Source of the DNA: an uncultured Spirochaetaceae bacterium
GTDB lineage: Bacteria; Spirochaetota; Spirochaetia; Sphaerochaetales; Sphaerochaetaceae
Reading direction: 5' to 3'
Assembly (NCBI GenBank): GCA_944389025.1
Contig: CALXKU010000013.1
Location: 2,868-66,867, forward strand
DNA: 64,000 bases
The position numbers and the translations under genes are program-made. The notes under the pieces are model-generated. The model saw only the letters and a list, made by a program, of their open reading frames with translations. It made no database searches and was not told the DNA's origin. Positions 35,138 to 53,476 of the stretch are shown here, piece by piece (position 1 is the stretch's first letter; the number at the start of each line of letters is the position of its first letter).

Positions 35138-35182
35138 ATGTCCTCCTTATATAGAGGAAGGCCATGGGACCTTCCATGAATG

Positions 35183-36766: not shown

Positions 36767-36810
36767 TTCATTCCCCTATTTTTACTGATGGGCATATCCC
36801 ATCTGAATTC

Positions 36811-37620: not shown

Positions 37621-37630
37621 GCAAGACCGC

Positions 37631-38443
37631 CTATTTTATTATTCCAAGTTTTTTTGCAATCGGCTGTGATTTCAAAAGCCCGAAAGTCCCCGGATAACCG
37701 ATCTCCTGAAGCCTCTTTATCGCATCATAGGCCTTCTTCTCGTCCCCATGAATCATCCAGTACCAGTAGAGCCCGTAGAGCATGTGGCTCTCTTCGAAAT
37801 GGACACGGTTTGGTCTGTCTATTACGACCTTTGCCATCTCCTCCTCGTCGATATAATCCTCAGGCTTAACGATGCCCTTGTAAAGCTGGACGGCTCTCTC
37901 GTAGCCATAATCCATCTGCGGAGCCTTTAGAGAACAGTCAATAAGATCCAGAGACTCCTCGGCCTTCTTATAGTCCCCAAGTTCGGCATATGTGGTGTAA
38001 AGCCAGTGAATGAGTGGATAGTGCTCATGAGGGTCTGTAAGGTGCAGGCACTCTTTGAAATCATCAATTGAATCCTCAAGAAGCCCCCCTCTCACATTCG
38101 CCGTAGTCGCCCTGTAGTACCAGTACGTCCAGTTAGATGGATCCAGCTGTATGCAGAGTGTGAAATCGGCCATAGCCCTCTTCCACTTTCCTGCAGCATT
38201 ATGCCTTCTGCCCCGTCCGAAATAATTGGGGGCGTAGAACGGCTCATACATGATTCCCATAGAATAGGCATCGATCGCCTCATCAATTCTGTTTTCTCCA
38301 GCAAGTGCCGTTCCCATGACATACCATGCGTAGCCGTCCGTCTCATCCTTATCAAGGAGCGCCTGAGCCTCTTTAACCGTTGGGCTCATCATCAGGATAT
38401 CGCGCATCTTCCTGTTCTTCTCTTCATTGTATACGAATTTCAT
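37631..38443 (-). CDS. TPR-repeat protein, paralogue 3
   Basis: Same conserved blocks. AGGAGG lies 9 nt upstream of the ATG. Confidence 0.7.
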   Translation of the reverse strand: MKFVYNEEKNRKMRDILMMSPTVKEAQALLDKDETDGYAWYVMGTALAGENRIDEAIDAYSMGIMYEPFYAPNYFGRGRRHNAAGKWKRAMADFTLCIQLDPSNWTYWYYRATTANVRGGLLEDSIDDFKECLHLTDPHEHYPLIHWLYTTYAELGDYKKAEESLDLIDCSLKAPQMDYGYERAVQLYKGIVKPEDYIDEEEMAKVVIDRPNRVHFEESHMLYGLYWYWMIHGDEKKAYDAIKRLQEIGYPGTFGLLKSQPIAKKLGIIK

Positions 38444-38500
38444 TCTTCACTATCCTCCTTTTCAGAAGCTTCAAAGGAAAAATTCCTTTGAAACTCATAT

Positions 38501-39481
38501 CTATCTCTTATGCACCTTGTGACAGGCAACAAAATGCTCCGGAGAAATTTCTTTAAGCTCAGGGACTACTGAGGAGCACTCCTCCGTTGCGAACGGGCAG
38601 CGGGTGTGGAAACAGCAGCCCGTTGGTGGATGCCTCGGAGATGGAACATCTCCCTGGATTTCAGCCTGCATCGTCTTCATATCCGGATCAGGCACTGGGA
38701 TTGCACTTAAAAGCGCCTTCGTATAAGGATGCTCGGCATGCTCGAAAAGCTCATCCTTGGATGTGATTTCCACGATATGTCCAAGATACATGACAGCAAT
38801 TCTGTCACAAAGATGATGGACGACACTGAGATTGTGAGAGATGAAGATATATGTCAGCCCCCTCTTCTCCTTGAGCACCTTCATCAGATTAAGAATCTGA
38901 GCCTGAATGGATACATCCAGCGCGGATACCGGCTCATCGCAGATTATGAGCTCCGGGCTGAGAGTAAGTGCTCTTGCAATTCCAATCCTCTGCCTCTGTC
39001 CGCCTGAGAACTCATGAGGGTATCTCGTAATCTGGTCGCTATTGAGTCCGACCTCCTTCATCAGACGCTCAACAAGGCTGTTACGCTCCTCCTTCGTCCC
39101 CTTCTTATGCTCATCCAGCGGCTCTCTTATGCAGCGTCCGACGGTGAAACGGGGATCAAGGGATGAGTAAGGATCCTGAAATATGATCTGTATCTTCTCA
39201 GCCATCTCCTTGCTATAGCGTCTCTTATCAGAGAGGATAGACTCCCCTCTGAATTTTATCTCTCCGGATGTCGGACGCAGAAGTCCCACGATGGTGTGCC
39301 CCGTGGTGGATTTCCCGCATCCGGACTCACCGACGATGCCGAAAGCTTCTTTTTTATAAACGTTGAAGCTCACTCCGTCGACGGCCTTTACGTATTCCTT
39401 TTTACCTATGATGGAATTCCCCTTCACAGGATAATAGACCTTGAGGTCTTTGACCTCCAGAAGAACTTCCTTATTCTCCAT
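38501..39481 (-). CDS. oligopeptide/dipeptide ABC transporter ATP-binding protein (OppF/DppF type)
   Basis: Walker [10 protein letters not shown], signature FSGGQRQR, Walker B ICDEPVSALD and a C-terminal Cys-rich oligopeptide-ATPase tail. ATG 39481 follows GGGGGAGAG and overlaps the upstream stop by 11 nt. Confidence 0.9.
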   Translation of the reverse strand: MENKEVLLEVKDLKVYYPVKGNSIIGKKEYVKAVDGVSFNVYKKEAFGIVGESGCGKSTTGHTIVGLLRPTSGEIKFRGESILSDKRRYSKEMAEKIQIIFQDPYSSLDPRFTVGRCIREPLDEHKKGTKEERNSLVERLMKEVGLNSDQITRYPHEFSGGQRQRIGIARALTLSPELIICDEPVSALDVSIQAQILNLMKVLKEKRGLTYIFISHNLSVVHHLCDRIAVMYLGHIVEITSKDELFEHAEHPYTKALLSAIPVPDPDMKTMQAEIQGDVPSPRHPPTGCCFHTRCPFATEECSSVVPELKEISPEHFVACHKVHKR

Positions 39482-40460
39482 CTCTCTCCCCCTTCTCATA
39501 TTTCCAGCAACGGACAAGTCTTCCATCATCAAGAGGGAAGAGAGGTGGCGCCTGATTCACGCACTTATCCGAGCAGTATGGACAGCGCGGAGAGAACCGG
39601 CAGCCAGCGGGGTAGTCTTTCGGGCTGGGAATACTTCCCTTGATTGAAAAGAGCGTATCCTTCTTGTCCGTAGGGCTCGGTATGGACTTGAGAAGTCCTG
39701 ATGTGTAGGGATGAAGGGGATCCTTGAAGATGCTCCTTACATCCGCGTACTCAACCGCAAGACCGGCGTACATGACCATCACACGCTTCGCAATCTGAGC
39801 AACGACACCAAGATCATGGGTGATGAGTATGATTGAAGTATGGTTCTCCTGCTGAAGATCCTTCAGAAGATGCATGATCTGAGCCTGTATGGTGACATCG
39901 AGAGCCGTGGTTGGCTCATCGGCAATCAGGATATCTGGATTGCAGGCAAGTGCCATGGCTATCATGACACGCTGCCTCATACCACCTGAGAGCTGATGGG
40001 GATACTCATCGAGCACCTGCGCAGCAGACGGGATCTTGACTTTTTCAAGCATCTCAAGCGCCTTTGCCCTCGCCTCCTTCTTATTCATCCCCTGATGGAG
40101 GCGGAGGATATCCGTTATCTGATAGCCGATCGTGAATACAGGATTGAGCGATGTCAAAGGTTCCTGGAAGATCATGGAAATATGATTTCCCCTAATCTTA
40201 CGCATCTCCTTCTCGCTTTTCTCAAGAAGGTTCTCACCACGGAAGATGATCTTGCCATCGATGATTTTGCCAGGAGGAGTTGCAACGATCTGAAGTATGG
40301 AGAGGGACGTGACGCTCTTGCCGCATCCCGATTCCCCTACGATTGCAAGGGTCTCATCCGGCATTAGATCGAAATCCAGTCCGTCAACCGCGGGGACCAC
40401 ACCCTCCTCCGTATAGAAATATGTTTTCAGGTTTTCAACCTTAAGTAGCGGTTCTGCCAT
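39471..40460 (-). CDS. oligopeptide/dipeptide ABC transporter ATP-binding protein (OppD/DppD type)
   Basis: [16 protein letters not shown] and [13 protein letters not shown] 40460 ([11 protein letters not shown]) is preceded by AAGGAG. The longer track ORF prefix has no homology-like features. Confidence 0.9.
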
Positions 40461-40471
40461 AAAGAATCTCC

Positions 40472-41311
40472 TTACCTGGTATTCTTGAGTTTCGGATCGA
40501 GGGCATCTCTCAGACCGTCTCCGACAAGGGAGAAGCTCATGACGACCAGAGTGATTGCGATACCCGGGAATATCGCCTCCCACGGATTCGAACGTAAAAC
40601 ATCCTTTGCCTTATTGAGCATCGCACCCCATTCCGGATTTGGCGGCTGTACGCCAAGGCCCAGGAAGGAAAGGGAGGATGAGGTGAGGATGGCCGATCCG
40701 AGATTCAGCGTCACGTTTACAATCATCTGGGAAACGGAGTTTGGAACGATATGCTTGCATATGATCTTGAAACTGCTTTCCCCTATCACCTTCGCTGCCC
40801 CGATATACTGCGCGTCCTTGTTCGTCATTACGACACCGCGCACCATTCGCGCTATGGACGGTATCGAGAATATCGAGATAGCGACTATGGTATTACCAGT
40901 ACCGTTTCCAAGTATTGCTACTACGACTATCGCCAGAAGAAGGCTTGGAAAAGCCAGAAGCACATCGATGACCCTTGAAATCACAGAATCAACCCAGCCA
41001 CCGAAATATCCTGCGAGAACACCTAAAACTATTCCGACAAAGCAACCGGAGAGTACGCCGGTGAAACTGATGTACATAGATATGCGCGCACCATATACGA
41101 TTCTTGTCAGGATATCACGCCCGAGATAATCCGTTCCGCACGGGTGCTCAAGGCTCGGTCCCTGCCCTATCTCCCTCAGATTCTGCTCAAGCGGCCCCTC
41201 AGGGAAGAAAAGAGGTCCGAAAATGGCCATGAAAAAGAAAAGGCAGAGAATTACGAGGCCTATGACAGAAACCTTTCTCTTAATGAATCGTCTGAATATT
41301 GGATTTTTCAT
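40472..41311 (-). CDS. peptide ABC transporter permease (OppC/DppC type)
   Basis: N-terminal TM, the periplasmic GTD.LGRD motif, an EAA-type loop and 6 TM segments. Confidence 0.9.
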   Translation of the reverse strand: MKNPIFRRFIKRKVSVIGLVILCLFFFMAIFGPLFFPEGPLEQNLREIGQGPSLEHPCGTDYLGRDILTRIVYGARISMYISFTGVLSGCFVGIVLGVLAGYFGGWVDSVISRVIDVLLAFPSLLLAIVVVAILGNGTGNTIVAISIFSIPSIARMVRGVVMTNKDAQYIGAAKVIGESSFKIICKHIVPNSVSQMIVNVTLNLGSAILTSSSLSFLGLGVQPPNPEWGAMLNKAKDVLRSNPWEAIFPGIAITLVVMSFSLVGDGLRDALDPKLKNTR

Positions 41312-41317
41312 AGAACC

Positions 41318-42250
41318 TCACTTTATCTTCACTCTAGGATCAACGAATCCATAAAGGATATCGACAATCGTATTCACCACGACGAAAGAGAACGAAAGAA
41401 TAAGAACTGTGCTCTGTATCGCCGGATAGTCACGTCCGTTCACGCTGTTTACAAGGAATGTACCGATTCCTGGAATGTTGAAGATCGTCTCGACCATAGT
41501 AGCTCCTGCAAGCAGACTTCCGAATCTCAGGCCGATTGCCGTCAAAACAGGAATGAAAGCGTTCTTAAACGCGTATTGGGTGATGATCTTCCTCTTTGAA
41601 ACACCGTAAGCCTTCGCTGTCCTCGTATAATCCTGGTTGATGACATCAAGCATCGAGGAGCGGGTAGTACGGGATATCATGCCTATGGCTCCAAGGCCGA
41701 GTGTCGCAATCGGGAGTATCGCATGTTTCCATGTAGTCAGACCAAGGCTTGGCAGAATGCGCAGATGCAGGCAGAAGAAGAGCATGAGCAGCATTGCAAG
41801 GAAGAAGGACGGCACGGATACGGCAATCATCGAAATGACCATTACGATGTTGTCCCCCGCCTTGTTATGGAACGTCGCTGCTATGATACCCGCGATTACG
41901 CCGAGTAGAGAACCGAGCACTGTTCCTCCGAGGGCAAGTATGATCGTATACTGATACCTGTTCGCCAGCTCGGTGGCAATCGTCTTATGGGTGACTATGG
42001 AAGTGCCAAGGTCCCCATGGAATATGCCTGCAATCCATCTCAGGTACTGCACAATCAGAGGATCATTGAGTCCGTAGTGCTCTCTCATGGCCTCAATGGT
42101 CGCCTCATTGGATCCACCGCCCTCCGACACGCCGTAAAGCAGCGTGATCGGATCGCCGGGGATAATCCTTACCATGAGAAATACTACAACGGAAACGAGA
42201 AACAGAGTCGGTATCAGTTGTAATAAACGTCTTATGATATATTTCAGCAT
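41318..42250 (-). CDS. peptide ABC transporter permease (OppB/DppB type)
   Basis: MLKYIIRRLLQ.IP N-terminus, the GDP motif and the YTRTAKA.G block are all typical of OppB/DppB. Confidence 0.9.
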   Translation of the reverse strand: MLKYIIRRLLQLIPTLFLVSVVVFLMVRIIPGDPITLLYGVSEGGGSNEATIEAMREHYGLNDPLIVQYLRWIAGIFHGDLGTSIVTHKTIATELANRYQYTIILALGGTVLGSLLGVIAGIIAATFHNKAGDNIVMVISMIAVSVPSFFLAMLLMLFFCLHLRILPSLGLTTWKHAILPIATLGLGAIGMISRTTRSSMLDVINQDYTRTAKAYGVSKRKIITQYAFKNAFIPVLTAIGLRFGSLLAGATMVETIFNIPGIGTFLVNSVNGRDYPAIQSTVLILSFSFVVVNTIVDILYGFVDPRVKIK

Positions 42251-42594
42251 AGGGCAGCTATCACACTCATCTCAAGAAGATATCCGTCATCGATTTTGGA
42301 CTCGATGCAGACTCTCGCCGGTGCGCGTCCTGGAACCGTCCAGGCGTTGTAAACCTCATTCATCTCAGCCTTGAGTGACATGTCAGAAATGTAGATTGTC
42401 ACCATCAGAAGGTGAGCCTTATCCGTACCATGGAGCTTAAAAAGCTCATCATAACGCTCAAGAAGGGCTTTAGTCTGCTCCTTGATCGTCGCGTGCTTCT
42501 TTCCGTCCACATGTCCGCTGAAATAGATTATGCCGTTATGGACCGTGGCACGGGAGAATGTTGCTGCCGGATCGATGTATTTGATGTCTTCCAT
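42244..42594 (-). CDS. RidA/YjgF/TdcF-family protein
   Basis: 116 aa with the family's length and blocks (G...FSG....D........Q....L, PAR..I). Confidence 0.8.
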   Translation of the reverse strand: MEDIKYIDPAATFSRATVHNGIIYFSGHVDGKKHATIKEQTKALLERYDELFKLHGTDKAHLLMVTIYISDMSLKAEMNEVYNAWTVPGRAPARVCIESKIDDGYLLEMSVIAALC

Positions 42595-42658
42595 TTTATC
42601 TCCTCCTTCATCCAGGACCCAAAGATGGTCGTCTTTGAGCCCCGCACGTGAAATCTCC

Positions 42659-43471
42659 TTACTTTATTATTCCAAGCTTCTTTGCGATTGGAATTCCCTT
42701 CGTATAACCGAAAGCCCCTGGGACTCCGATTTCCATCAGGCGTGCAATCGCATCATAGGCTGCCTTATCATTGCCATTCATCTTCTGGAACCAGTAAAGG
42801 CCGTAAAGCATTCCGCACTCCTCGAGGTGCACTCTGCCCGGTCTGTTGAGAACTGCCTTTGCCATCTCCTCTTCGTTGATGAACTCCTCCGGCTTAACGA
42901 TGCCCTTGTAAAGCTGAACAGCCCTCTGATAGCCATAATCCATCTGAGGAGCATGAGCCTTGCTGCAATCAATGAGATCAAGGCATTTCTTAGCCTCGTC
43001 GAACTTTCCAAGCTCACAGTTTGATGTATAGAGCCAATGAACGAGAGGATACTGCTCATCCGGATTCGTGATATTCAGGCACTGCCTGAAATCATAGATG
43101 CAGTTCTCATACTCTTCATGTGTATTCCATGTTGTAGCCCTGTAATACCAGTATGTCCAAGTGGAAGGTTCAAGCTGGATGCAGAGTGTGAAATCTGCAA
43201 TTGCCTGCCTCCATTCACCAACAGCATTATGACGTCTGCCTCTTCCAAAATAGTTAGGTGCGTAGAATGGTGCGTATGAGATACCGATGGAATGCGCCTC
43301 TATAGCCTCCTCCACCTTACCGCTGTTTGAAAGGGCGACAGCCTTCTTGTACCATGCAAGAGGATCCGTCTCATCCTTCTTAAGCTCAGCCTCAGCCTCC
43401 TCAAGAGTCGGCTGCATCATGAGGATGTTCCTCATCTCGAGATTCTTCTCTTCGTTGTAAACAAATTTCAT
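42659..43471 (-). CDS. TPR-repeat protein, paralogue 4 (first gene of the peptide operon)
   Basis: Same conserved blocks as the other three. AAAGGAGGG RBS. Preceded by a 376-bp AT-rich intergenic region. Confidence 0.7.
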   Translation of the reverse strand: MKFVYNEEKNLEMRNILMMQPTLEEAEAELKKDETDPLAWYKKAVALSNSGKVEEAIEAHSIGISYAPFYAPNYFGRGRRHNAVGEWRQAIADFTLCIQLEPSTWTYWYYRATTWNTHEEYENCIYDFRQCLNITNPDEQYPLVHWLYTSNCELGKFDEAKKCLDLIDCSKAHAPQMDYGYQRAVQLYKGIVKPEEFINEEEMAKAVLNRPGRVHLEECGMLYGLYWFQKMNGNDKAAYDAIARLMEIGVPGAFGYTKGIPIAKKLGIIK

Positions 43472-43723: not shown

Positions 43724-43735
43724 GAAATTAATTTC
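43724..43735. promoter_or_regulatory. perfect palindrome GAAATTAATTTC (copy shared with the sorC upstream region)
   Basis: The 14-mer CTGAAATTAATTTC is identical to 50858-50871. It lies between the end of the sugar operon and the start of the peptide operon. Confidence 0.25.
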
Positions 43736-43847: not shown

Positions 43848-44282
43848 TTAATAACACCAATTATCCCTGATATAATCATAACTGAATTCGATAGACTTCA
43901 CAGTAAGAGGAAGGCAGAGATGAGGTGGATCGTCGGCCTTAAAACTGCCAGGACGAAGCACCGAGCAGTTTAGGGATGAGAATTCTTTCTCGAAAGCGGA
44001 GGCAAAGCCATTGCAAAGCTTTTCGATATCAGATCGGCTTTTTCCTAGTGAAATCCCCAGAAGGCCTATGAACATGAGAGTGCCCTCAACAAGGCCGCAC
44101 TGGGCACCGTAATATGATGCCCCATGCATTCCAAGAGCGGCAGAGAGAACATCCTCTGCCAAAGGAACAGAGAAGAGATGGGAAAGACACCTCAACGTGG
44201 TCCTTGCACAGTTCTCATCCTCATCATAGTACAGGTGGTGAACCTCAGAGGCTATAAATGATCTTTCATCATCTCTTATCAT
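43848..44282 (-). CDS. C_GCAxxG_C_C-family protein
   Basis: The three spaced Cys blocks of the family are present (ENCARTTL, YYGAQCGLVEG, SSLNCSVL). ATGA overlap with the kinase gene. Confidence 0.6.
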   Translation of the reverse strand: MIRDDERSFIASEVHHLYYDEDENCARTTLRCLSHLFSVPLAEDVLSAALGMHGASYYGAQCGLVEGTLMFIGLLGISLGKSRSDIEKLCNGFASAFEKEFSSLNCSVLRPGSFKADDPPHLCLPLTVKSIEFSYDYIRDNWCY

Positions 44283-45715
44283 GAGCGGAATATGTTCCTT
44301 ACAGATGGGTATATCAGCTTAAAGCGCTCATAGAGTTTCTCATAATGCCTTACCCTCTCCTCATTCGGATAGTATGTTTCAGATCGCATACCGGCAAGAA
44401 TCGAGGAGATGAAAGCCGAATAGGATGAGATCAGCTTCTTACCATAAAGCACTACAGATGAGAGTGCGATGCTCGGTAGCGCCTCCGAGTCCTCGAAGAC
44501 AACAACAGGAGCATTGAATATGTCTGCGAATATCTGATTCCATACGCTCTCACTCGCCCCTCCTCCTATCAGGGAAACACTGGAGGGCTTGATCCTGTGA
44601 TTATCCATCCCCATTCTGAGAGAGAATGCAACACCTTCAAGGGCACTCCTTGCAAGATCTGATAGCGTGGTGGAGTTATCCAGTCCGACATATACACCCC
44701 TTACCTTGTCATCCGCAACAGGAAAGCGCTCTCCTACAAGGTATGGCATGCACAGAAGGTTCTCATTTCCATGCTTATCAGAGGAAAGAAGATCATGAAG
44801 GACATCATACCTGTTACTCTCCCCTTCCGGATATATGACTCTCGATATCCAGTTATGGACATTAGCAGCGTTCAGAACCGGGATGACGTTGATATAAAGC
44901 CCCCTGTTTATCGCGGCAAGATTGAACACCCCCTCCATCGGGCGATCCGAGAGGGATGCAACCCATCCGCTCGTGCCGAGATTCACGCTGAATTCCCCCG
45001 CTCTCGTAACACCGGAGGCGAGAGTGGTCGCACCCGCATCCCCGGAGCCTACAAAGACTTCCACATTTCTCCTGAAACCTGTCGCCTCAGAGGCTTTATC
45101 ACTCACAAGACCTGCGACCTCATCCGAATACATCAGAGTGGGAAGAATACGGCTCTCAACAAGCCCGGAAAGCGGGATGTATTCTTTTTTCAGGATATCC
45201 ATCATACCGGATGTGGACATGTTTGTAACATCGGAGACACATCGCCCTGTAAGCTTATATACAAGGTAATCCTTCGCACTTATAAGCAGATGCTCAGCCT
45301 TCTCAAGAACATCAGGCCTGTTCTTTTTGAACCACAGCATCTTGGCAATAGGGATTGTCCCATTCATCGATATCGTTGTCAGCTCAGAAACATAGGAAGG
45401 CAGTTCATCAACAAACTCGGCTCCCCGCTGGTCATCATATAGCACAGCGTTTCCTATGGGCTCCCCAGAGCTATCGAGAAAATACAGATCCTGCATCTGC
45501 CCCGAGAAGATGATGTAATCAATATCAGAGGTGTCAAACCTCTTCGTTAGAGAAAGAAACGCCTTCCACCACTCATGCGGATCCTGCTCTATGAATCCAT
45601 CGGAGTGTATCGTGCTGATGTTCTCCTTGCCAGAAAATGAGATGTTCTGCTTCTCATCCAGGACGACGCACTTCAAGGCTGTCGTTCCGAGATCGAATGC
45701 CGCTATTCTTGCCAT
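44279..45715 (-). CDS. FGGY-family carbohydrate kinase
   Basis: N-terminal DLGTTALK phosphate-1 motif, a central GSGDAG-like block and the C-terminal GGGASES..W.QI.ADIF motif. 478 aa. Confidence 0.85.
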   Translation of the reverse strand: MARIAAFDLGTTALKCVVLDEKQNISFSGKENISTIHSDGFIEQDPHEWWKAFLSLTKRFDTSDIDYIIFSGQMQDLYFLDSSGEPIGNAVLYDDQRGAEFVDELPSYVSELTTISMNGTIPIAKMLWFKKNRPDVLEKAEHLLISAKDYLVYKLTGRCVSDVTNMSTSGMMDILKKEYIPLSGLVESRILPTLMYSDEVAGLVSDKASEATGFRRNVEVFVGSGDAGATTLASGVTRAGEFSVNLGTSGWVASLSDRPMEGVFNLAAINRGLYINVIPVLNAANVHNWISRVIYPEGESNRYDVLHDLLSSDKHGNENLLCMPYLVGERFPVADDKVRGVYVGLDNSTTLSDLARSALEGVAFSLRMGMDNHRIKPSSVSLIGGGASESVWNQIFADIFNAPVVVFEDSEALPSIALSSVVLYGKKLISSYSAFISSILAGMRSETYYPNEERVRHYEKLYERFKLIYPSVRNIFRS

Positions 45716-46485
45716 TCCTCTTTCGCCCTCCCGATATCGGAAATATATGCCCTGAGACTCTCAAGCGATTCATTAAGATGCTTCACGATCGCAGTCCCGA
45801 TGATGACGCCTCTAAAGCCTTCCTTATATTTTCTCACAACCTGCTCGCATGTGCTGATACCGAATCCTGCAAGCCCTACGACATGTGGATAGCCAAGGGA
45901 TTTTTCAAGCATATGGTGATACATCTCGACAGCAGATCCTTTTCCCGTCTGCCCGACATAAAGCTGCTCATAGACGAGGGGGAAAGTGGAGAACACGTCA
46001 TCAAGCTCGCTATCGCTCATATCAGGATTTGAAAATCCGATGACATCCACTCCGTATGGATTAAGTTGCGGAATCAGAGAGACCCTCTCGCTCTCTTTCA
46101 AATCCGGAATGACCACGCCATCAAGCACACCGGCTCGCGAGAATTCCAGGTAAAGCCCACTTTCAATGAAATCTCTCTCATACGCCATAGCCCAGATCGG
46201 CTTATCGGTGGCTTTCCTTATCCTGGTCCAGTAATCTAAAGAGCAACAGATACTCTTATCTACAGCTCTGTGCGCATCAGCGATAACCTGTCCATCCGAA
46301 TAAGGGTCTGAGGATGCAAAACCAAGCTCGATTATGTCAAGAGAAGACCGGTTTATGACATCAAGGACATCAAAGAACTCCTCACAGCCAGGGTATCCTG
46401 CAAGTACATAACCGACAAGAAGCTTCCCCCGTCTTTCTAGCAAAATCTTCGTGCGATCAGATGAAATCTCAATCATTTCTGCCAC
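45703..46485 (-). CDS. tryptophan synthase alpha-chain (TrpA) paralogue of unknown substrate
   Basis: Aligns with the genuine TrpA in this window. IIELGFASSDPYSDGQVI matches [24 protein letters not shown] matches IGFGIS, and VIIGTAIVK matches VIIGSAIVR. Its coding sequence overlaps both neighbours. Confidence 0.7.
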   Translation of the reverse strand: MAEMIEISSDRTKILLERRGKLLVGYVLAGYPGCEEFFDVLDVINRSSLDIIELGFASSDPYSDGQVIADAHRAVDKSICCSLDYWTRIRKATDKPIWAMAYERDFIESGLYLEFSRAGVLDGVVIPDLKESERVSLIPQLNPYGVDVIGFSNPDMSDSELDDVFSTFPLVYEQLYVGQTGKGSAVEMYHHMLEKSLGYPHVVGLAGFGISTCEQVVRKYKEGFRGVIIGTAIVKHLNESLESLRAYISDIGRAKEEWQE

Positions 46486-47425
46486 TTCCCATTTTCTGAA
46501 ACACTACTGCGAATACGATTATGACACCGGTGACTATGTTCTGTACGAACGTAGGAACCTGCATGATCGTAAGTCCATTTGCAAGGATTGTGAAGAGCGC
46601 AACACCGACAACAGTTCCAAGCACATTCGGAATCCCTTCCCTGAAAAGTGTCTTTCCTATGAAGATCGTCGCATAGGAGTTGAGCATATACGCATCTCCT
46701 CCTGTCGGGGATGCGGAACCGATTCTGGATGCAAGAAGGACTCCGGCAAAACCCGCCATGGCGCCAGAGATTGTGAAGGCTATCGTCTTATAGGCATTGA
46801 CGCGGATACCGGCTACCCGGCTTGCCGTCTCATTTCCACCGATGGCATAAAGCTTGCGTCCCATGGCAGTGCGTGTCATCAGATACTGGAATACTATGAT
46901 GGCAAAAAGCATCAGAACGGTAAGGTATGGAACAGGTCCGAACTTTCCTGTTCCGAGGACCTTGAAGCTCCCCGGAATCCCGTTAAAAACGATTGCACCG
47001 TCAGAGAGCCAGTATGTTATTCCATATATGACCTGCCCCATTGCAAGGGTGACTATGAATGACATGACCCTAAACCGGGTCACGATGAACCCATTCACAA
47101 ACCCCACGACGGCACTCAGTACGATGGATAGCAGCAGAGCGGGAAGGAACGGCATTCCGCTGATTGCCAGCAGCGCGGAAAGGACACCGCTGAAGGAGGC
47201 AATGTTACCAACGGAAAGGTCGAATTCCTCAACACTCATAATAAGCGTTGCTCCAAGGCTTATTATGCACAGAATCGCCATCTGCCTCGTTATATTCCAG
47301 AAGTTAGTCGTAGAGAGGAAAGCACGCGGATTAAGAATGCCGAATATCACGATAACGAATACGAGTGCGAATATCGTACCGTATGCCCTCACAATAGCTC
47401 TGAAATCTGTTTTTCTCTTCTCCAT
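46469..47425 (-). CDS. sugar ABC transporter permease (ribose/RbsC type)
   Basis: About 9-10 TM segments and typical RbsC-like blocks (G.DLSVG, GG...A.R.GI.V). ATG 47425 lies 1 nt after the ATPase stop codon. Confidence 0.9.
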   Translation of the reverse strand: MEKRKTDFRAIVRAYGTIFALVFVIVIFGILNPRAFLSTTNFWNITRQMAILCIISLGATLIMSVEEFDLSVGNIASFSGVLSALLAISGMPFLPALLLSIVLSAVVGFVNGFIVTRFRVMSFIVTLAMGQVIYGITYWLSDGAIVFNGIPGSFKVLGTGKFGPVPYLTVLMLFAIIVFQYLMTRTAMGRKLYAIGGNETASRVAGIRVNAYKTIAFTISGAMAGFAGVLLASRIGSASPTGGDAYMLNSYATIFIGKTLFREGIPNVLGTVVGVALFTILANGLTIMQVPTFVQNIVTGVIIVFAVVFQKMGSGRND

Positions 47426-47426
47426 A

Positions 47427-48914
47427 TCATCTATCCCTGTAACAGTAGCCGAGAACCTGTTCGGAAGTAAGATTCCTGTTCTCAAGGCGTTCCCATGTCT
47501 TTCCGTTCGAAATAACCGTTATGCTGTCTGCAACCTCAAGCATCTCCTTCAGATCGCTTGTCACATATACGACCGCGCTTCCCTCGCTAGCGCACTTGCG
47601 CAGGAGGTCATGAATCTCCTGTCTCGTCTTCACATCCACAGCCTGAGTAGGCTCATCGCATAAGAAGAGTTCAGGCTTTGTCATTAAAGCACGGGCAAAA
47701 ACAGCTTTCTGCTGGTTGCCTCCTGAGAGCTCTCCGACACTCTGGTTCATCCCTTGGCACTGTATGCTCATCTGCTGAATCTTCTCTTCAGCATCCGCCC
47801 TCTCCCCTTTTACATCGTAAAGACCATGTTTAACATAACCATCGATTGAAGAGAGTACGATGTTATCTTTAAGGGATCTTGAGACGACAAGCGAATGCCC
47901 CCTTCTGTCCTCATGAACAAGGACTATACCGTTTTTGATGCATTTCGCAGGAGAAGGTTTATCAAATGGGGAACCGTTGTAGATTATCTTTCCCCCGCTT
48001 TTCTCCCTGAGTCCGTAAAGCGCTTCAAGGCTTTCCGTACGCCCAGATCCTCCGAGGCCGAAGAGTCCCATTATCTCACCGCTATGGGCAGTGAAGGAGA
48101 CATCTTTCACAATACCATCCGAGGTGGAAAGATGCTCCACTCTGAAGACCTCACGCCCAGAGGAAGAGTGAGATCGGTCACGCTCACGGCTGACCCAGTT
48201 ATCCGTCATGAGCCTTACCAGCCCACCCTGATCTATGGCAGATGTGTTAACGGTATCAACAAGCTGTCCGTTCTTGAACACCGTTATCCTCTCCGTCAGC
48301 CCGAAAATCTCCTCAAGCCTATGTGAGACGTAGAGTATCGCAGTCCCGTCCGCATTTATCTTTCTGATAAGGGAGAAGAGTTTCGCGCTCTCCTTATCCG
48401 TAAGCGATGCGGTGGGCTCATCAAGAATCAAGAGTTTTGAGTTGTTCATGACGGAGCGCACGATCTCAAGCATCGTCTTCTGAGAGGGACTGAGCTCACT
48501 GGCCATCTTATCAAGAGGCAGAGTTATACCGTAGGCCTCCATCACGCTCTCGATATTTTTCCTCATGCTCTTGAAATCGATACTCACTCCGTGCCGCTTG
48601 GGAGTATCCATTCCAAGGTAAATGTTCTCAACACCGGAGAAAGAGGGGACGAGGTTCCTGTCCTGGTGTATTACGCTTATTCCTGCCCTGCGACTTTCCA
48701 CCGGATCCGCTATCTCAACTTCCTTTCCTGAGATCAAAATCCTTCCGTCAGTCTTTGGATATACCCCTGTAAGAATCTTTATGAAAGTGGATTTCCCTGC
48801 CCCGTTCTCCCCGACCAGACCATGAATCTCACCCTCTGCTATTTTGAAGTTGATATCCTTTAGGGCATAGAAAGAACCGAATCTCTTGCATAACCCTTCC
48901 GTTTCGATAAGCAT
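47427..48914 (-). CDS. sugar ABC transporter ATP-binding protein (duplicated ABC, RbsA/MglA type)
   Basis: Two ABC halves. The first has GENGAGKST, LSPSQKTM and ILDEPTASL. The second has LSGGNQQK and LCDEPTQAVD. Confidence 0.9.
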   Translation of the reverse strand: MLIETEGLCKRFGSFYALKDINFKIAEGEIHGLVGENGAGKSTFIKILTGVYPKTDGRILISGKEVEIADPVESRRAGISVIHQDRNLVPSFSGVENIYLGMDTPKRHGVSIDFKSMRKNIESVMEAYGITLPLDKMASELSPSQKTMLEIVRSVMNNSKLLILDEPTASLTDKESAKLFSLIRKINADGTAILYVSHRLEEIFGLTERITVFKNGQLVDTVNTSAIDQGGLVRLMTDNWVSRERDRSHSSSGREVFRVEHLSTSDGIVKDVSFTAHSGEIMGLFGLGGSGRTESLEALYGLREKSGGKIIYNGSPFDKPSPAKCIKNGIVLVHEDRRGHSLVVSRSLKDNIVLSSIDGYVKHGLYDVKGERADAEEKIQQMSIQCQGMNQSVGELSGGNQQKAVFARALMTKPELFLCDEPTQAVDVKTRQEIHDLLRKCASEGSAVVYVTSDLKEMLEVADSITVISNGKTWERLENRNLTSEQVLGYCYRDR

Positions 48915-48962
48915 GCATCCCCCTAAATGCAGGATGCCCCCGCAGAGGCATCCTGAATAAAG

Positions 48963-49880
48963 TCAATTTTCAGCCGTAATCAGCAGAGCCGGTACGTACT
49001 GGTTTCCGCTCAGTGCCTCCTCACCATTGAGAAGCTTGATGACTTCCTGAGCGCAGAGACGGGACATTCCCTCAAAGTCCTGAGCGAGTGTCGCTTTGAA
49101 GTTCGTTCCCTGATTTATGAGCTGGACAGCCTGCTCGTTACCATCAACTCCGACTACGATAACCTCATCCCTTCCTGCTTCCATGAGGGCCTGAGTTGCT
49201 CCGATAGCAGGCTCGTCCCATGCGCAGAAGATGGCGGCGAAGCTACCCTTCTCCGGATATGCGGTAAGAATGTTCTCTACGATATCCTTCGCATTGTTAA
49301 TCTGGTTTGGAACATCGCAATGATACTCAGCGATCATTTCGACATCAGGATATTTCGGAAGCTCATCGATCATGGCAAGCGTCCTCTGGACAACGCTCGG
49401 CTGCGGGCGGTGCGTGATATGGAAGAACTTTCCCTTGTTTCCCATCAGGCCAAAGAGGTACTCGCACATCTGCACACCCATCTGATAGTTGTCACTCGTG
49501 GCATTCATCTGCATGCAATCCATGAAGCCCGCATCAACACCGAAGATAGGGATACCTGCATCCGCGGCTTCCTGGATCTGGGTTGCGACCAGGTTCGGAT
49601 CAACGCTGACAATCACAATCGCGTCAACAGCGGAAATCGTCGCGGTCTCGATATCGGAAGCAAGCCTGCTGAGATCGTTCGCAGAATCAAATACGGACAC
49701 CTTCACCCCAGCCGCCTCGAATTCCTCCGTCAGTATGTCAACATCCTGTTTTGTAGTGACTGAAGACATGTACGGTGTACATATGGCAACAGTCTTTTCA
49801 CCGGACTCGGCTGCACCGGATGCGAACAGAATTCCGGTCAATGAAAGCAAACATATAAGCAGAATCAGAACCTTCTTCAT
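48963..49880 (-). CDS. sugar ABC transporter substrate-binding protein (RbsB-like)
   Basis: From ATG 49880 (5 nt after GGAGG) the product starts MKKVLILLICLLSLTGILFASG, a signal peptide. It has a periplasmic-binding-protein type I fold pattern. Confidence 0.85.
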   Translation of the reverse strand: MKKVLILLICLLSLTGILFASGAAESGEKTVAICTPYMSSVTTKQDVDILTEEFEAAGVKVSVFDSANDLSRLASDIETATISAVDAIVIVSVDPNLVATQIQEAADAGIPIFGVDAGFMDCMQMNATSDNYQMGVQMCEYLFGLMGNKGKFFHITHRPQPSVVQRTLAMIDELPKYPDVEMIAEYHCDVPNQINNAKDIVENILTAYPEKGSFAAIFCAWDEPAIGATQALMEAGRDEVIVVGVDGNEQAVQLINQGTNFKATLAQDFEGMSRLCAQEVIKLLNGEEALSGNQYVPALLITAEN

Positions 49881-49900
49881 TTTTTCCTCCTTTTTGACGG

Positions 49901-50848
49901 TCATGCCGTCACCGTTCCGATTATATTTCTTGCGGTCTCAAGAGATGTGATCAGCACGTCTATCACACCGGCCTTGAGAACCGCTTTTATGGCTTCAGCC
50001 TTATCGCGACCAGAGGCTATTGCAATAACCTTTGACCCCTGTATGTCATTGATTGATGCACCTATCATCCTGTCACTCAGGCTTGTGCGTAGAACATTGC
50101 CATCGGCATCAAGATAGGAAGAACAGATACTTGATACCGCATGCAAAGCCCTGAGGGAATTTAAATCCTCATCGGTCAAGCCTCCGGCAAGAGCACCAGT
50201 GGAAGAGGCATCAACATTTCCGATTCCGACAAGCGAGACATCACAGGTTGGGATGAGATCCAGCACTTTCCTGACGCTCGGCTCTGCGACGAAAGCATTC
50301 TTCGCCTCCACGCTGTTTGCAAAATTCGGAGCGGTGAAGACGTAATAGCGGCCATTGGATTTCGCTGCCATCTCCTGGGCTATAACATTCGCATACCAGT
50401 CAGTCCCATTACTGGAGAAACCTCCACAGAGGGGGACATATTCAAAACCGTGCTTCTTTGTCACAGGAATGCTGTCAGCAATGAATTTTACGGTACGGCT
50501 ACTCATGAGCCCCACCCTGTAACCATCCTTTATCTCTATTGCAAGGTAATCGGCAGCCTTGCCGGCAAGGAGCCTCATCTCGGTCTCTCCGAATGAATTT
50601 CCAAGGTCGAACACAACCGCCTCAAGTCCGTATTCATCCCGGATCAGATCCTGGTAATGGGCCTCAAAGGAGTTCGGATAATTGAAACGGACCGTAACAA
50701 GATTCCTCTCGTTGGCTATCGCTATTATCCTCGAAATCTGAGGTCTTGATATCCCGAGCTTTGCGGAAATCTCCTTCTGGCTCAATCCGTCCCTGTAATA
50801 CAGCTCGCAGACTCTAAAGATGTATTTAGTGTTATCAAGAACGCTCAT
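49901..50848 (-). CDS. SorC/DeoR-family transcriptional regulator
   Basis: N-terminal HTH (YYRDGLSQKEISAKLGISRPQISR) plus a sugar-phosphate-binding SorC domain. 315 aa. Confidence 0.85.
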   Translation of the reverse strand: MSVLDNTKYIFRVCELYYRDGLSQKEISAKLGISRPQISRIIAIANERNLVTVRFNYPNSFEAHYQDLIRDEYGLEAVVFDLGNSFGETEMRLLAGKAADYLAIEIKDGYRVGLMSSRTVKFIADSIPVTKKHGFEYVPLCGGFSSNGTDWYANVIAQEMAAKSNGRYYVFTAPNFANSVEAKNAFVAEPSVRKVLDLIPTCDVSLVGIGNVDASSTGALAGGLTDEDLNSLRALHAVSSICSSYLDADGNVLRTSLSDRMIGASINDIQGSKVIAIASGRDKAEAIKAVLKAGVIDVLITSLETARNIIGTVTA

Positions 50849-50859
50849 ATCCGACCTCT

Positions 50860-50949
50860 GAAATTAATTTCAATGCATGAATTAATTTCCTATAAGAATT
50901 TTCCTTTACAGTTAATGAGTTGTAAACAAAAATTTCAGAAATAAATTTC
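50860..50949. promoter_or_regulatory. cluster of GAAAT/ATTTC half-site palindromes upstream of sorC (candidate operator array)
   Basis: GAAATTAATTTC (50860-50871, perfect), GAATTAATTTC (50879-50889) and AATTTCAGAAATAAATTTC (50931-50949). The first lies 12 nt upstream of the sorC ATG, next to its GAGG RBS. Confidence 0.35.
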
Positions 50950-51726
50950 ACTTCTTATGGCTTTAATAATCCTTCTGACGAAAGACCTCACATGATCTGG
51001 AGAATCCTTCCCATACTCTGCGATGATTCTAACAATCGCAGATCCGATTATCACCCCATCGGAGAGAGAGGCCATTGCTTTTGCCGACTCCTCATCCGAG
51101 ATACCGAATCCTATCGCGACAGGGATATCGGGACGCACGCTTCTAACAGAATCTATCATTCGCCCGATATTTGAAGAGAAGCTTTTCCTGACACCTGTCA
51201 CTCCGAGGGAAGAGACACAGTAAATGAAACCTGTTGCATCGGCAGCTATCATGCGGATCCTCTCATCACTTGTCGGTGCGATGAGGGAGATCAGGGCTAT
51301 TCCATGGCTCTCAGCAACAAAGGAGAACTCATCTTTCTCCTCATATGGGACATCTGGAAGAATCAAAGCACAAAAACCCGCCTTCTCCATCCTTGAAAGG
51401 AAAGCCTCCGTACCATAGGAGAATACGACATTGGCATAAGTCATGATTGCAAGAGGGACATCAATTCCTTCCGCTCTGAGAGATTGCACCATCTCAAAGA
51501 CATCATCCGAACTCACTCCAGTCATCAGCCCTCTCTGATTAGCCTCCTGAATCACAGGCCCCTCGGCCATCGGATCAGAGAACGGTATTCCCAGCTCAAT
51601 CAGGCTTGCCCCCTCCTCTGCCATCGCCCTTATTATTTCCTTGCTTGTCTCGATATCAGGATCTGCTACCGTAATGAACGGAATGAACGCCTTCCCTTTG
51701 GAAAATACTCTTTTTATATCACTCAT
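50935..51726 (-). CDS. trpA: tryptophan synthase alpha chain
   Basis: Full-length collinearity with TrpA (FIPF.T..DP, ELG.PFSDP, Y.N.V, GFGIS, G.I.GSAIV). ATG 51726 overlaps the trpB stop (ATGAGTGA). Confidence 0.9.
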
Positions 51727-52900
51727 AGATGTTCCTCCCCCTGTACCTTGCAATTGCCGCAGTATCCTTGTCCCCTCTTCCTGAAATGTTCACTACGATG
51801 ATCTGGTCCCTGCTCATCTTCGGTGCAAGCTTGATGGCATAAGAGACCGCATGTGCCGATTCGATTGCGGGGATTATGCCCTCGGTGCGCGAAAGATACT
51901 CAAAAGCGTTTACCGCCTCATCATCCGTGATTGGAACATACTCCGCTCGCCCGACTGATGCCAGATACGCATGCTCCGGTCCGATTCCAGGATAATCGAG
52001 ACCGGCAGAGATTGAGTAAACAGGAGCAATCTGCCCATGTTCATCCTGACAGAATATGCTCTTCATCCCGTGAAATATCCCCACTCGTCCAGTTGCCATT
52101 GTCGCTGCCGTATCACAAGAATCGACACCTCTGCCCGCAGCCTCGCAACCTATAAGGCGCACACTCTCATCTTCAATGAAATGGTAGAAAGCCCCTATCG
52201 CATTCGAGCCACCACCGACACATGCGATTACTGCATCCGGAAGACGGCCTTCCTTTTCGAGAATCTGCTCCTTGATTTCAGCAGATATCACAGCTTGGAA
52301 ATCACGAACCATGGTGGGAAACGGGTGCGGCCCCATTACCGACCCTATAACATAATGGGTATCGCTGATCCTCTTCGTCCATTCACGGAATGTCTCACTC
52401 ACCGCATCTTTGAGCGTTGCCGTCCCTGAATCGACTGGATGCACCTTAGCCCCCAGCAGCTCCATCCTGTATACGTTAAGAGCCTGACGCTCGGTATCAA
52501 GGCGTCCCATGAATATCTCACACTCCATGCTTAAAAGAGCGGCTGCGGTTGCGGTTGCAACACCGTGCTGTCCGGCTCCCGTCTCTGCGATAAGACGGGT
52601 CTTCCCCATCTTCTTTGCAAGCAGTGCCTGTCCCAGCGCGTTATTGATCTTATGAGCTCCGGTATGATTAAGGTCCTCCCTTTTAAGGTATATCTTCGCA
52701 CCTCCGAGATCCCGTGTCATATTCGCCGCATAATACAGCCTTGACGGCCTGGATGCATATTCATTGAGCAGATACTGAAGCTCACTTCTGAATTCAGGAT
52801 CATCCTTGAAACGCTCATATGCCTCATTCAGCTCCAAAACCGCATTCATCAGCGTCTCAGGGATATACATGCCACCATATTCTCCGAATCTCACACTCAT
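51719..52900 (-). CDS. trpB: tryptophan synthase beta chain
   Basis: FGEYGG.YIPE, the PLP-lysine block [19 protein letters not shown] and GGGSNA. ATG 52900 lies 6 nt after GGAG; the track start is TTG 52912. Confidence 0.95.
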
Positions 52901-53133
52901 ATAAAACTCCAAACGATGGAAATATTGTTACTATGTACAATAACAAGAATGGGAACAAGATGTCAATTACTATTAATAGAAACATAATTAAATTTAGAAT
53001 TGTTTCCAACTGTTCAATGAGAAATGTGTGGATTTGTCAGTCAAAATTAGAAAAGAAGAATGGCTAAACGGGAAATGCTCAGAGATGGAAAGCATTTTAT
53101 AAGATGCGTTTCCCGCCGCCATTCTCGAAAAAC

Positions 53134-53320
53134 TTATAGATGCTTAGAAAAGAACGAGAGTGCATTCTCCTGCTCTTTTAGCCTGAAATCATGGGCACAG
53201 TCCTCCATAATGGAGCAAAAGTTCTCTGGAACACCAAGACTCTCATACTCAGAGATAACACTATCGGAGAGTTTCTTTACGCTATCGTACGGAAATATAG
53301 CATCATTTTTTTCCATAAAG
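53134..53320 (-). pseudogene. 3'-terminal remnant of an alpha/beta-hydrolase (esterase-like) gene
   Basis: The last 60 or so codons read FMEKNDAIFPYDSVKKL...YESLGVPENFCSIMEDCAHDF...FFSKHL. This is the usual C-terminal Asp...His segment of dienelactone-hydrolase-type esterases. There is no N-terminal nucleophile domain upstream. Confidence 0.4.
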
Positions 53321-53476
53321 CAGAAAGGCGGGGCAATCATATTCGTAAGCTCAGATATCGAGGAGCTTCTTGGCATGGCAGACAGGATAATGGTAATCTC
53401 GCATGGCCAGATTGCTCTTGATGAGAATGCAAACCTCCTTACGAAAGAAGCCCTTCTTAAAGCTGTAGGATACTGA
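53321..53476 (+). pseudogene. 3'-terminal remnant of a sugar-type ABC ATPase gene
   Basis: KGGAIIFVSSDIEELLGMADRIMVISHGQI is the D-loop/H-loop tail of RbsA/MglA-type ATPases. The Walker A, signature and Walker B parts are absent, and the upstream part of the ORF is antisense to the esterase remnant. Confidence 0.5.

Follow-up and report, generated by a model that had tools for sequence, protein, structure and literature searches.

Why does an operon of ordinary sugar-uptake type carry a gene of the TrpA family, when a trpB-trpA pair is already present immediately upstream of it? This question is raised by positions 43848-52912 of a 64,000-nucleotide stretch of DNA from an uncultured Spirochaetaceae bacterium, the whole of which is referred to here as the window. 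On the minus strand of this region, trpB and trpA are followed by the genes of a regulator, a binding protein, an ATPase, a permease, a TrpA paralogue, a kinase and a C_GCAxxG_C_C protein. The analysis presented below places the paralogue in a conserved six-gene cassette, which is built on an unprecedented recruitment of the TrpA family. TrpA ranks among the best-studied enzymes and is known in bacteria essentially only as the partner of TrpB. The best reading of the cassette, which we put at an even chance, is that a compound is imported, phosphorylated and cleaved by TrpA-type chemistry to glyceraldehyde-3-phosphate (G3P) and an aglycone, with indole-3-glycerol or a close (hetero)aryl-glycerol as the most parsimonious substrate. 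No published description of the cassette was found in full-text literature searches, in agreement with the first-pass annotation, which knew of no described pathway of this type.

The gene identities were assigned from the open reading frame (ORF) list together with Pfam and NCBIfam profile matches. The first gene of the cassette encodes a SorC-family regulator with a helix-turn-helix (HTH) and a sugar-phosphate-binding domain (49901-50848, minus strand, as are all the following; PF04198, 184 bits). It is followed by a CUT2 (ribose-type) substrate-binding lipoprotein (48963-49904; Peripla_BP_4), a tandem-domain ATP-binding cassette (ABC) ATPase resembling RbsA and AraG (47427-48914; double ABC domain), a single ABC permease resembling RbsC and AlsC (46469-47485; BPD_transp_2), the TrpA paralogue, predicted to be a stand-alone C-C lyase (45703-46485; PF00290 Trp_syntA, 112 bits), and an FGGY kinase of the xylulokinase-like branch (44279-45715; best match XylB). 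The regulator and binding-protein genes overlap by 4 nucleotides (nt) and the paralogue and kinase genes by 13 nt, and the overlap of the permease and paralogue genes is 17 nt from a GTG start or 8 nt from the ATG at 46476. The latter is the start chosen by gene callers on contigs of 98% and 83% identity and is likely the true one. The gene order, strand and overlaps of 17, 13 and 4 nt given in the first-pass annotation therefore hold, with the 17 nt becoming 8 nt if the ATG start is used. On the other hand, the same annotation had included in the operon the C_GCAxxG_C_C protein (43848-44282; Pfam/NCBIfam match), whose gene overlaps the kinase gene by 4 nt. This gene is confined to the window lineage (L090-L092; the 98% and 83% relatives) and is absent from the other approximately 35 cassette loci. 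It is a lineage-specific appendage outside the conserved unit, and its presence in the window lineage alone rules it out as a member of the pathway.

By scanning one genome per GTDB species, 31 loci with members of the paralogue's clade were found, in Sphaerochaetaceae and other spirochaetes, in Clostridia (Anaerotruncus massiliensis AT3, Oscillospiraceae, Anaerovoracaceae and Limiplasma) and in one metagenome-assembled genome (MAG) of Anaerolineaceae. Further cassettes are carried by Sphaerochaeta pleomorpha Grapes, by three metagenomic lineages and by a genome of 5.9 Mb that represents a distant subclade (36% identity). When the window proteins were compared by BLAST with the ORFs of these loci, the order regulator, binding protein, ATPase, permease, TrpA-like protein and kinase was recovered in essentially every locus with enough flanking sequence (regulator kept in 27 loci, ATPase in 30 and permease in 30), and overall it is found in more than 35 loci of two phyla. 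The immediate neighbours of the TrpA-like gene are always the permease and the FGGY kinase genes, and the kinase always comes after it. In addition, the percent identities of all six proteins drop jointly from locus to locus, so the cassette evolves as a block. All-against-all clustering of every ORF in the cassette loci revealed no other conserved gene or enzyme, such as a dehydrogenase, an isomerase or an LsrG-like protein, and the remaining recurrent "families" of that clustering were antisense shadow ORFs. As no seventh gene is conserved, two enzymes must suffice. This gene arrangement is far beyond chance, and the survey of neighbourhoods bears out the tie between TrpA-like gene, FGGY kinase and importer that had been suspected from the window.

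The two enzymes are also joined physically in some genomes. At one locus (L024, 7925-10165), an in-frame fusion of 746 residues is encoded, in which the TrpA domain spans residues 16-252 and a XylB-like kinase domain spans residues 263-740. A second protein of 745 residues (P0126) has the same layout, with the TrpA-like part at the N-terminus and the FGGY part at the C-terminus; both carriers are Eubacteriales-type genomes. Such fusions are classical evidence that both enzymes act consecutively.

One alternative is that the paralogue is just another orthodox TrpA, working with a TrpB encoded in the window or elsewhere, or that it activates TrpB without catalysis, as the chlamydial TrpA does. 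In fact, it does match Trp_syntA, it barely reaches the TIGR00262 cut-off (102.6 against 102.35, the L030 homologue scoring 101.2), and trpB is located 5 kb away in the window. However, it shares 24% identity with the neighbouring TrpA, and the clade as a whole shares 24-28% with true TrpAs. A search of 5.8 billion proteins returned 56 clusters at E <= 1e-46, with 37-98% identity, below which there is a gap, and the orthodox TrpAs come next at approximately 1e-19. Similarly, HMMER found 23 representatives at E <= 1e-30 versus 2298 at 1e-3 among 1.84 billion 50%-identity representatives. By these counts, the clade is rare but real. In a neighbor-joining (NJ) tree, which is unrooted and distance-based, 27 clade representatives were set apart from 48 orthodox TrpAs (including S. 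typhimurium TrpA, the window TrpA and a plant TrpA domain) in 100/100 bootstraps, and the plant domain fell outside the clade. In this tree, the paralogue groups apart from orthodox TrpA, and its distinctness, which the first-pass annotation had proposed, is supported. The clade is also different from the published "TrpA2", which is an archaeal TrpA partner of TrpB2 (PMC1854888). Furthermore, the partner of the clade gene is in every case a kinase, at times within a fusion, and not TrpB, the TrpB-contact positions of orthodox TrpA are not conserved, and the catalytic cavity is intact, unlike that of chlamydial TrpA (both described below). Together these results make a second orthodox TrpA or a TrpB activator next to negligible as an explanation; the sequences place the paralogue in a small monophyletic clade of its own.

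An AlphaFold (AF2) model of the paralogue, built from a 29-sequence alignment, has a predicted local distance difference test score (pLDDT) of 95.2 and a predicted template modelling score (pTM) of 0.92. The (beta-alpha)8 fold and the Trp_syntA homology are present (PF00290; model), and in Foldseek the model matches TrpA and BX1 structures only, with template modelling (TM) scores of 0.82-0.84 and identities of 23-28% (approximately 23% to BX1 in the structure alignment). Modelling had been called for in the first-pass annotation along with a comparison of the indole-pocket residues; the latter, made by alignment, found these positions largely kept.

To map the active site, the clade was aligned to an S. 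typhimurium TrpA sequence whose numbering reproduces Glu49, Asp60, Thr183, Gly211-213 and Gly234-Ser235. The motifs IIELGFASSDPYSDG, AGFGIS and IIGTAIV of the paralogue align to Glu49, Asp60, Gly211-Gly213 and Gly234-Ser235, and its own conserved residues are E53, D64, T180, G207-F208-G209 and G230-T231. In S. typhimurium numbering, Glu49, Asp60, Tyr175, Tyr102, Met/Leu100, Gly184 and Gly211 are present in 100% of the 27 clade representatives; Thr183, Phe212, Gly213 and Gly234 in 96%; and Ser/Thr235 in 95%, and position Phe/Tyr22 is Tyr in 96%. The catalytic pair and the phosphate loops, which had been claimed from the window protein, are thus kept at 95-100% throughout the clade. The hydrophobic cavity, comprising Tyr26, Met100, Tyr102, Val125, Pro127, Phe151, Tyr172, Phe208 and Ile228, is kept at 77-100% (Ile228 at 88% as Ile/Val). 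In TrpA, Glu49 is the proton donor and acceptor, and Asp60 contacts the N1 atom of indole (PMC11574760). The indole ring is stacked by Phe212, and the cavity is shaped by Gly211, Gly213, Gly234, Leu100 and Ala129; in the catalytically inactive chlamydial TrpA, these positions are disrupted, with those glycines and Phe212 lost (PMC8376405). The highly conserved clade positions thus include the acid/base pair and the lining of both the indole and the phosphate sub-pocket of S. typhimurium TrpA. The paralogue is, apparently, a catalytically intact TrpA-family enzyme and is predicted to be active. In addition, the clade alignment contains no invariant Lys and no His cluster. This makes aldolase chemistry of the Schiff-base (class I) or metal (class II) kind unlikely, and an enamine-like electron sink must then be part of the substrate itself, as it is in indole.

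On the other hand, the face that meets TrpB in orthodox TrpA has changed. Phe54, Asp56, Asn104 and Pro132, which are TrpB contacts in the S. typhimurium complex, are conserved in 68%, 89%, 85% and 77% of the 48 orthodox TrpAs, respectively. In the clade, Phe54 is replaced by Ser (81%), Asp56 is Asn in 51% and Asp in 33%, and Asn104 and Pro132 are variable. The loss of these positions indicates a stand-alone enzyme. The clade has near-invariant residues of its own, Ser58, His72, Trp98 (invariant), Asp105 (96%), Gln174 (Val/Leu177 in TrpA), Leu175 and Tyr176, and the clade-specific residues are grouped around the base of loop 2 and that of loop 6. It is the dynamics of these two loops that govern stand-alone activity in BX1 (PMC11574760).

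The retained features constrain the substrate. Since the distance between the phosphate loop and the Glu/Asp pair is retained, a three-carbon spacing as in indole-3-glycerol phosphate (IGP) would be expected; the conservation of Asp64 argues for an N-H or O-H donor beside the ring carbon that bears the chain; and an aromatic aglycone is suggested by the hydrophobic character of the cavity, which is conserved. All three points fit indole-3-glycerol, which also explains the trp neighbours and is the leading guess. The habitats of the carriers, namely, gut, rumen and digesters, are rich in indole.

The trp neighbours occur in three layouts. In the window, in its relatives L090-L092 and in L002, trpB-trpA lies immediately upstream of the cassette. 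In a rumen Clostridiales genome (L029), trpB-trpA is again immediately upstream, and the regulator gene has moved downstream. In two Sphaerochaetaceae loci (L004 and L005), the cassette is followed, after 175 nt and on the same strand, by a complete trpEGDCFBA operon. In a 3-Mb genome, any one locus has a <1% chance of being located 10 kb or less from trpB. Given this low per-locus chance, the recurrence of the adjacency in a minimum of two, and probably three, independent layouts is unlikely to be accidental, and so is its persistence while the cassette proteins diverge to approximately 40% identity. The trpE, G, D, C and F genes were not found in the 64-kb window or in the trpBA-linked loci of the first two layouts, as far as the DNA at hand extends, which is short of whole genomes. 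In the window, trpB (51719-52912, minus strand; TIGR00263, 646 bits) and the orthodox trpA (50935-51753, minus strand; Trp_syntA, 295 bits) are neighbours of the cassette rather than parts of it, and TrpB is a possible consumer of the aglycone.

The remaining cassette proteins leave room for a different explanation. The transporter is of an ordinary sugar type, and so are the kinase and the regulator; none of them reaches a characterised equivalog: the kinase scores 282 bits against TIGR01312 (cut-off 380) and 164 against NF011601 (cut-off 912), and the regulator is closest to B. subtilis-type DeoR (155 bits, cut-off 420) and then to LsrR (98 bits, cut-off 486). The nearest solved structures are generic ribose/polyol binding proteins (approximately 1e-31) and xylulokinases, and neither points to a ligand. 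It could accordingly be argued that the cassette serves an ordinary rare-carbohydrate route, in which a pentulose- or tetrulose-like sugar is imported and phosphorylated and the TrpA-fold barrel has been converted into a metal-free enzyme of sugar phosphates (an epimerase, isomerase or aldolase), whose product is a pentose-phosphate or glycolytic intermediate, the trp adjacency being a relic or a coincidence. The affinity of the kinase to XylB and to xylulokinase structures, of the transporter to ribose, allose and arabinose systems and of the regulator to the deoxyribose-5-phosphate-responsive DeoR type is in line with this explanation, as is the absence of trp genes from most loci. TrpA belongs to the ribulose-phosphate-binding barrel superfamily, which includes epimerases and isomerases, and this also counts in its favour. 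Against it stand the TrpA catalytic set (Glu49, Asp60 and Thr183) and the hydrophobic, aromatic cavity, which are kept with no polar sugar-binding replacements, and the three trp layouts, which persist down to approximately 40% identity of the cassette proteins. We regard the rare-carbohydrate route as unlikely, but as an explanation to be taken seriously. Membership in a XylB/xylose-utilisation system specifically was rejected, as the kinase scores are below the cut-offs and no xylose isomerase partner was found in any cassette locus by ORF clustering.

The binding protein provides evidence on both sides. In an alignment of its family to E. coli RbsB, the hydroxyl-binding residues D89, R141, D215 and Q235 are kept in 100% of the sequences, which again favours a carbohydrate ligand. 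The stacking residues F15, F16 and F164 are replaced by T, T and I, R90 is replaced by S or A, and N190 is replaced by W (96%). These replacements hint at a remodelled, larger pocket, which would fit a ligand with a polyol part and a bigger, possibly aromatic part.

A further alternative is a modified form of the lsr system for autoinducer-2 uptake and processing, with the TrpA-like enzyme in the place of LsrF and LsrG for the disposal of phospho-4,5-dihydroxypentane-2,3-dione (phospho-DPD). The first-pass annotation had pointed out the likeness to lsr, and at the level of operon logic the likeness stands: in both, a repressor of the SorC family, an ABC importer of the ribose type and an FGGY kinase go together with a barrel enzyme, whose part is to split the phosphorylated product into central metabolites. 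It does not extend to the proteins themselves. All equivalog scores are far below the cut-offs (LsrK 96/528, LsrB 20/384, LsrR 98/486 and LsrC 127/388), on which ground lsr membership was rejected. The cassette has one permease gene instead of LsrC and LsrD, it has no LsrG or LsrF, and its barrel enzyme is of the TrpA family rather than the DeoC/FbaB family. Moreover, a hydrophobic, indole-type pocket is unsuited to a small, highly oxygenated C5 compound. An lsr variant is therefore highly improbable.

The cassette also appears to have its own regulation. A 12-bp perfect palindrome, GAAATTAATTTC, is located at 50860-50871 and ends 12 nt before the regulator ATG, a degenerate copy is located at 50878-50889, and a distal copy with one mismatch, GAAATAAATTTC, makes up the last four codons of trpA (50938-50949). 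Between the distal and proximal sites lies a promoter-like sequence, TTTACA-17-GAAAAT (50898-50926, minus strand), with 9/12 consensus matches; the promoter-like sites reported here come from a consensus scan only. At one mismatch or fewer, the palindrome occurs four times in the window versus 0.3 times expected from shuffles of the window. Counted over the window and 755 kb of cassette loci, the exact palindrome occurs 40 times; in 36 cases, it precedes the first cassette gene by no more than approximately 150 bp, and this holds for both spirochaetes and clostridia. The sites are usually paired, 78-93 bp apart, and a pair flanks a promoter in 26 fetched loci and in the window. In L029, the pair brackets TTGACA-17-TATAAT and the distal site overlaps the trpA stop codon; in L004, the layout is the same, with TTGCAT-17-TAGAGT between the sites. 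The distant subclade (L084) is without the GAAATTAATTTC operator, no copy is located upstream of the window trpB, and an Rfam scan of seven loci gave no T-box or other Trp-responsive RNA leader. The palindrome is thus the putative binding site of the SorC-family regulator, presumably a repressor, and with this layout the cassette would be transcribed autonomously, under the control of the repressor.

Based on the results presented above, the cassette would be a self-sufficient catabolic or salvage unit that is induced by its substrate, and the import and cleavage of an aryl-glycerol would proceed as follows. The SorC-family repressor would sit on the two GAAATTAATTTC palindromes flanking the cassette promoter until the phosphorylated intermediate dislodges it, as the analogy with DeoR, LsrR and CggR suggests. 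The ribose-type ABC importer would take in a compound with a run of hydroxyls and a bulkier, probably aromatic, group, and the xylulokinase-like FGGY kinase would phosphorylate its terminal CH2OH. The TrpA-like Glu53/Asp64 acid/base pair, placed by Thr180, would then split the aglycone from C1 of the glycerol-phosphate chain. The products would be D-glyceraldehyde-3-phosphate, which enters glycolysis, and the free aglycone; if the latter is indole, it could be captured by TrpB where trpBA adjoins. The import-phosphorylate-cleave logic had been proposed in the first-pass annotation, and it fits a cassette of two enzymes in which no other enzyme is conserved. The gene content and its conservation, the fusions, the operator, the conserved residues and the fold are what the analysis shows, whereas the substrate, the aldolase activity, the order of the reactions, G3P as a product, the nature of the aglycone and the effector of the repressor are the parts that we infer.

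Several points weigh against an aryl-glycerol pathway and against indole-3-glycerol as its substrate. The main difficulty is redundancy: authentic IGP made by the kinase could be used directly by orthodox TrpAB. Since the lyase is nevertheless invariant, and even fused, either a catabolic harvest of G3P, carriers without TrpA, or a substrate related to IGP but not identical to it would have to be considered. The last option is allowed by Gln174 and the other substitutions; Ser58, Gln174, Leu175, Tyr176, Trp98 and Asp105 all differ from TrpA, and the specificity may depart from IGP. The pocket assignments rest on the sequence alignment and on published descriptions, and the sugar-type transporter, kinase and regulator would fit a rare carbohydrate equally well. 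In approximately 30 of the 35 cassette loci, trp genes are absent from the nearest 10 kb; in addition, the operators flank a promoter that belongs to the cassette itself, and trpB is without an operator. The trpBA link drawn in the first-pass annotation survives as a recurrent adjacency in three arrangements; simple co-transcription of the cassette with trpBA is not supported. The cassette-trp link is facultative, and because most loci are without trp genes and the cassette has its own promoter, the feeding of TrpB is at best accessory, in some lineages. Indole-3-glycerol is not known to be an abundant environmental compound. In the structure searches, the paralogue matched only orthodox TrpAs, and no solved or characterised clade member came up.

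A more specific form of the aryl-glycerol pathway is an indole-3-glycerol salvage route, supplied, for example, by dephosphorylated IGP overflow or by IGP formed through reverse TrpA in indole-rich anaerobic habitats. This is a tentative proposal and, as such, somewhat unlikely. If it is true, the paralogue would be the first lyase of IGP from a bacterium that stands alone, and the cassette would be the first known uptake-kinase entry to the tryptophan pathway at the level of IGP. The lineages with an isolated trpBA (the window, L002 and rumen L029) could then, despite a putatively truncated trp pathway, make tryptophan from a community-derived intermediate and burn the glycerol-phosphate moiety. 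In a wider salvage version, the same chemistry would harvest G3P from other (hetero)aryl-glycerols.

A clade in which TrpA catalysis is kept, the TrpB interface is shed and a kinase and an importer are linked would represent a new physiological role of the family and, likewise new, a catabolic or salvage route of two enzymes. Should indole-3-glycerol be the substrate, the cassette would be a new cross-feeding node in the tryptophan and indole metabolism of gut, rumen and digester communities, and the enzyme would be a naturally TrpB-independent bacterial lyase of relevance to enzyme engineering. The clade also has implications for annotation. Pipelines label its proteins "tryptophan synthase subunit alpha", and predictions of tryptophan prototrophy in MAGs are therefore inflated. 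The operator GAAATTAATTTC and the cultured carriers, Sphaerochaeta pleomorpha Grapes and Anaerotruncus massiliensis AT3, make the hypothesis directly testable.

The position of the cassette among known systems can be summarised from the side of the enzyme first. The clade shares with TrpA (EC 4.1.2.8 half-reaction) the fold, the Glu/Asp pair, Thr183, the phosphate loops and largely the same hydrophobic cavity; it differs from TrpA in its low identity, in the lost TrpB-contact positions, in the altered positions adjacent to loops 2 and 6 (Ser58, Gln174, Leu175 and Tyr176), and in its genomic setting, which in most genomes is an importer and a kinase and not trpB (trpB lies within 10 kb in three arrangements among approximately 35 loci). 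Plant BX1 and IGL are derived from TrpA, act independently of TrpB and release free indole and G3P, with identical catalytic residues and a changed behaviour of loop 6 (PMC11574760). They are the closest guide to how the clade enzyme probably works, and its active site is compatible with IGP cleavage without TrpB. However, they are recent plant TrpA offshoots, 63% identical to ZmTrpA, whereas the bacterial clade is deep-branching and unrelated to them; and the plant IGP comes from biosynthesis (TrpC), whereas the clade substrate would come from import and a kinase, as proposed here.

The phosphorylate-then-cleave logic has a parallel in pseudouridine catabolism, in which the kinase PsuK/YeiC and then PsuG/YeiN lead to cleavage of the C-C bond between a heteroaromatic ring and a sugar phosphate, giving the free base and ribose-5-phosphate. 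The likeness is one of logic: the kinase there is of the PfkB type, the lyase is a lysine-using enzyme of the PsuG fold, the product is ribose-5-phosphate and not G3P, and the families are unrelated. The cassette logic is also like that of the deo and ery systems. The regulator shares with the B. subtilis DeoR/SorC repressors the HTH and PF04198 architecture and the palindromic operators flanking a promoter, but it reaches 155 of the 420 score required, and the operator GAAATTAATTTC and the effector would be specific to the cassette.

Variants at single loci were also observed. In L030 (23-4042), a TrpA-like gene and a SorC regulator gene follow an ABC transporter with a fused permease resembling PhnT2/PhnU2, which stands in for the ribose-type importer, and there is no kinase gene on this single contig, which is truncated upstream. 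This hints at an arrangement compatible with the import of a substrate that is already phosphorylated or phosphonate-like. In the distant subclade (L084, 10307-11071; GCA_052072235.1), a gene for an S-adenosylmethionine (SAM) methyltransferase directly follows the kinase gene. A cobalamin riboswitch follows directly after the cassette kinase gene of Anaerotruncus massiliensis AT3 (L015, 12359-12537) and presumably controls the next, unrelated gene.

Upstream of the cassette, the ORF list starts trpB at a TTG (52912), and the ATG at 52900, which is preceded by GGAG, is the likelier start. The best promoter-like match of the region, TTGACA-18-TATTGT with a TG element, precedes trpB at 52966-52937. 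Between a GH130 gene and trpB, a plus-strand ORF (53060-53476) was noted whose last approximately 55 residues resemble the C-terminal end of an ABC ATPase of the sugar type (GGAIIFVSSDIEELLGMADRIMVISHGQI); the ORF is probably what remains of a gene.

On the other side, a third exact copy of the operator is located 3' of the cassette (43724-43735), 253 nt upstream of an operon with genes for a TPR protein, RidA and a Dpp-type ABC transporter, and this copy is also found in L090, L091 and L092. In the window lineage only, the regulon may take in a second importer of the peptide/opine type. The minus-strand operon below this operator (approximately 35100-43471) encodes a 270-residue TPR protein, RidA, ABC components of the DppB/C/D/F type, two more TPR paralogues and an SBP_bac_5 binding protein. 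The three paralogous TPR proteins of 270 residues lie amid the Dpp-type genes at 42659-43471, at 37631-38443 and, for the third copy, just downstream (L090, 18852-19661). They start with MKFVYNEEKN and are unusual companions for an ABC importer.

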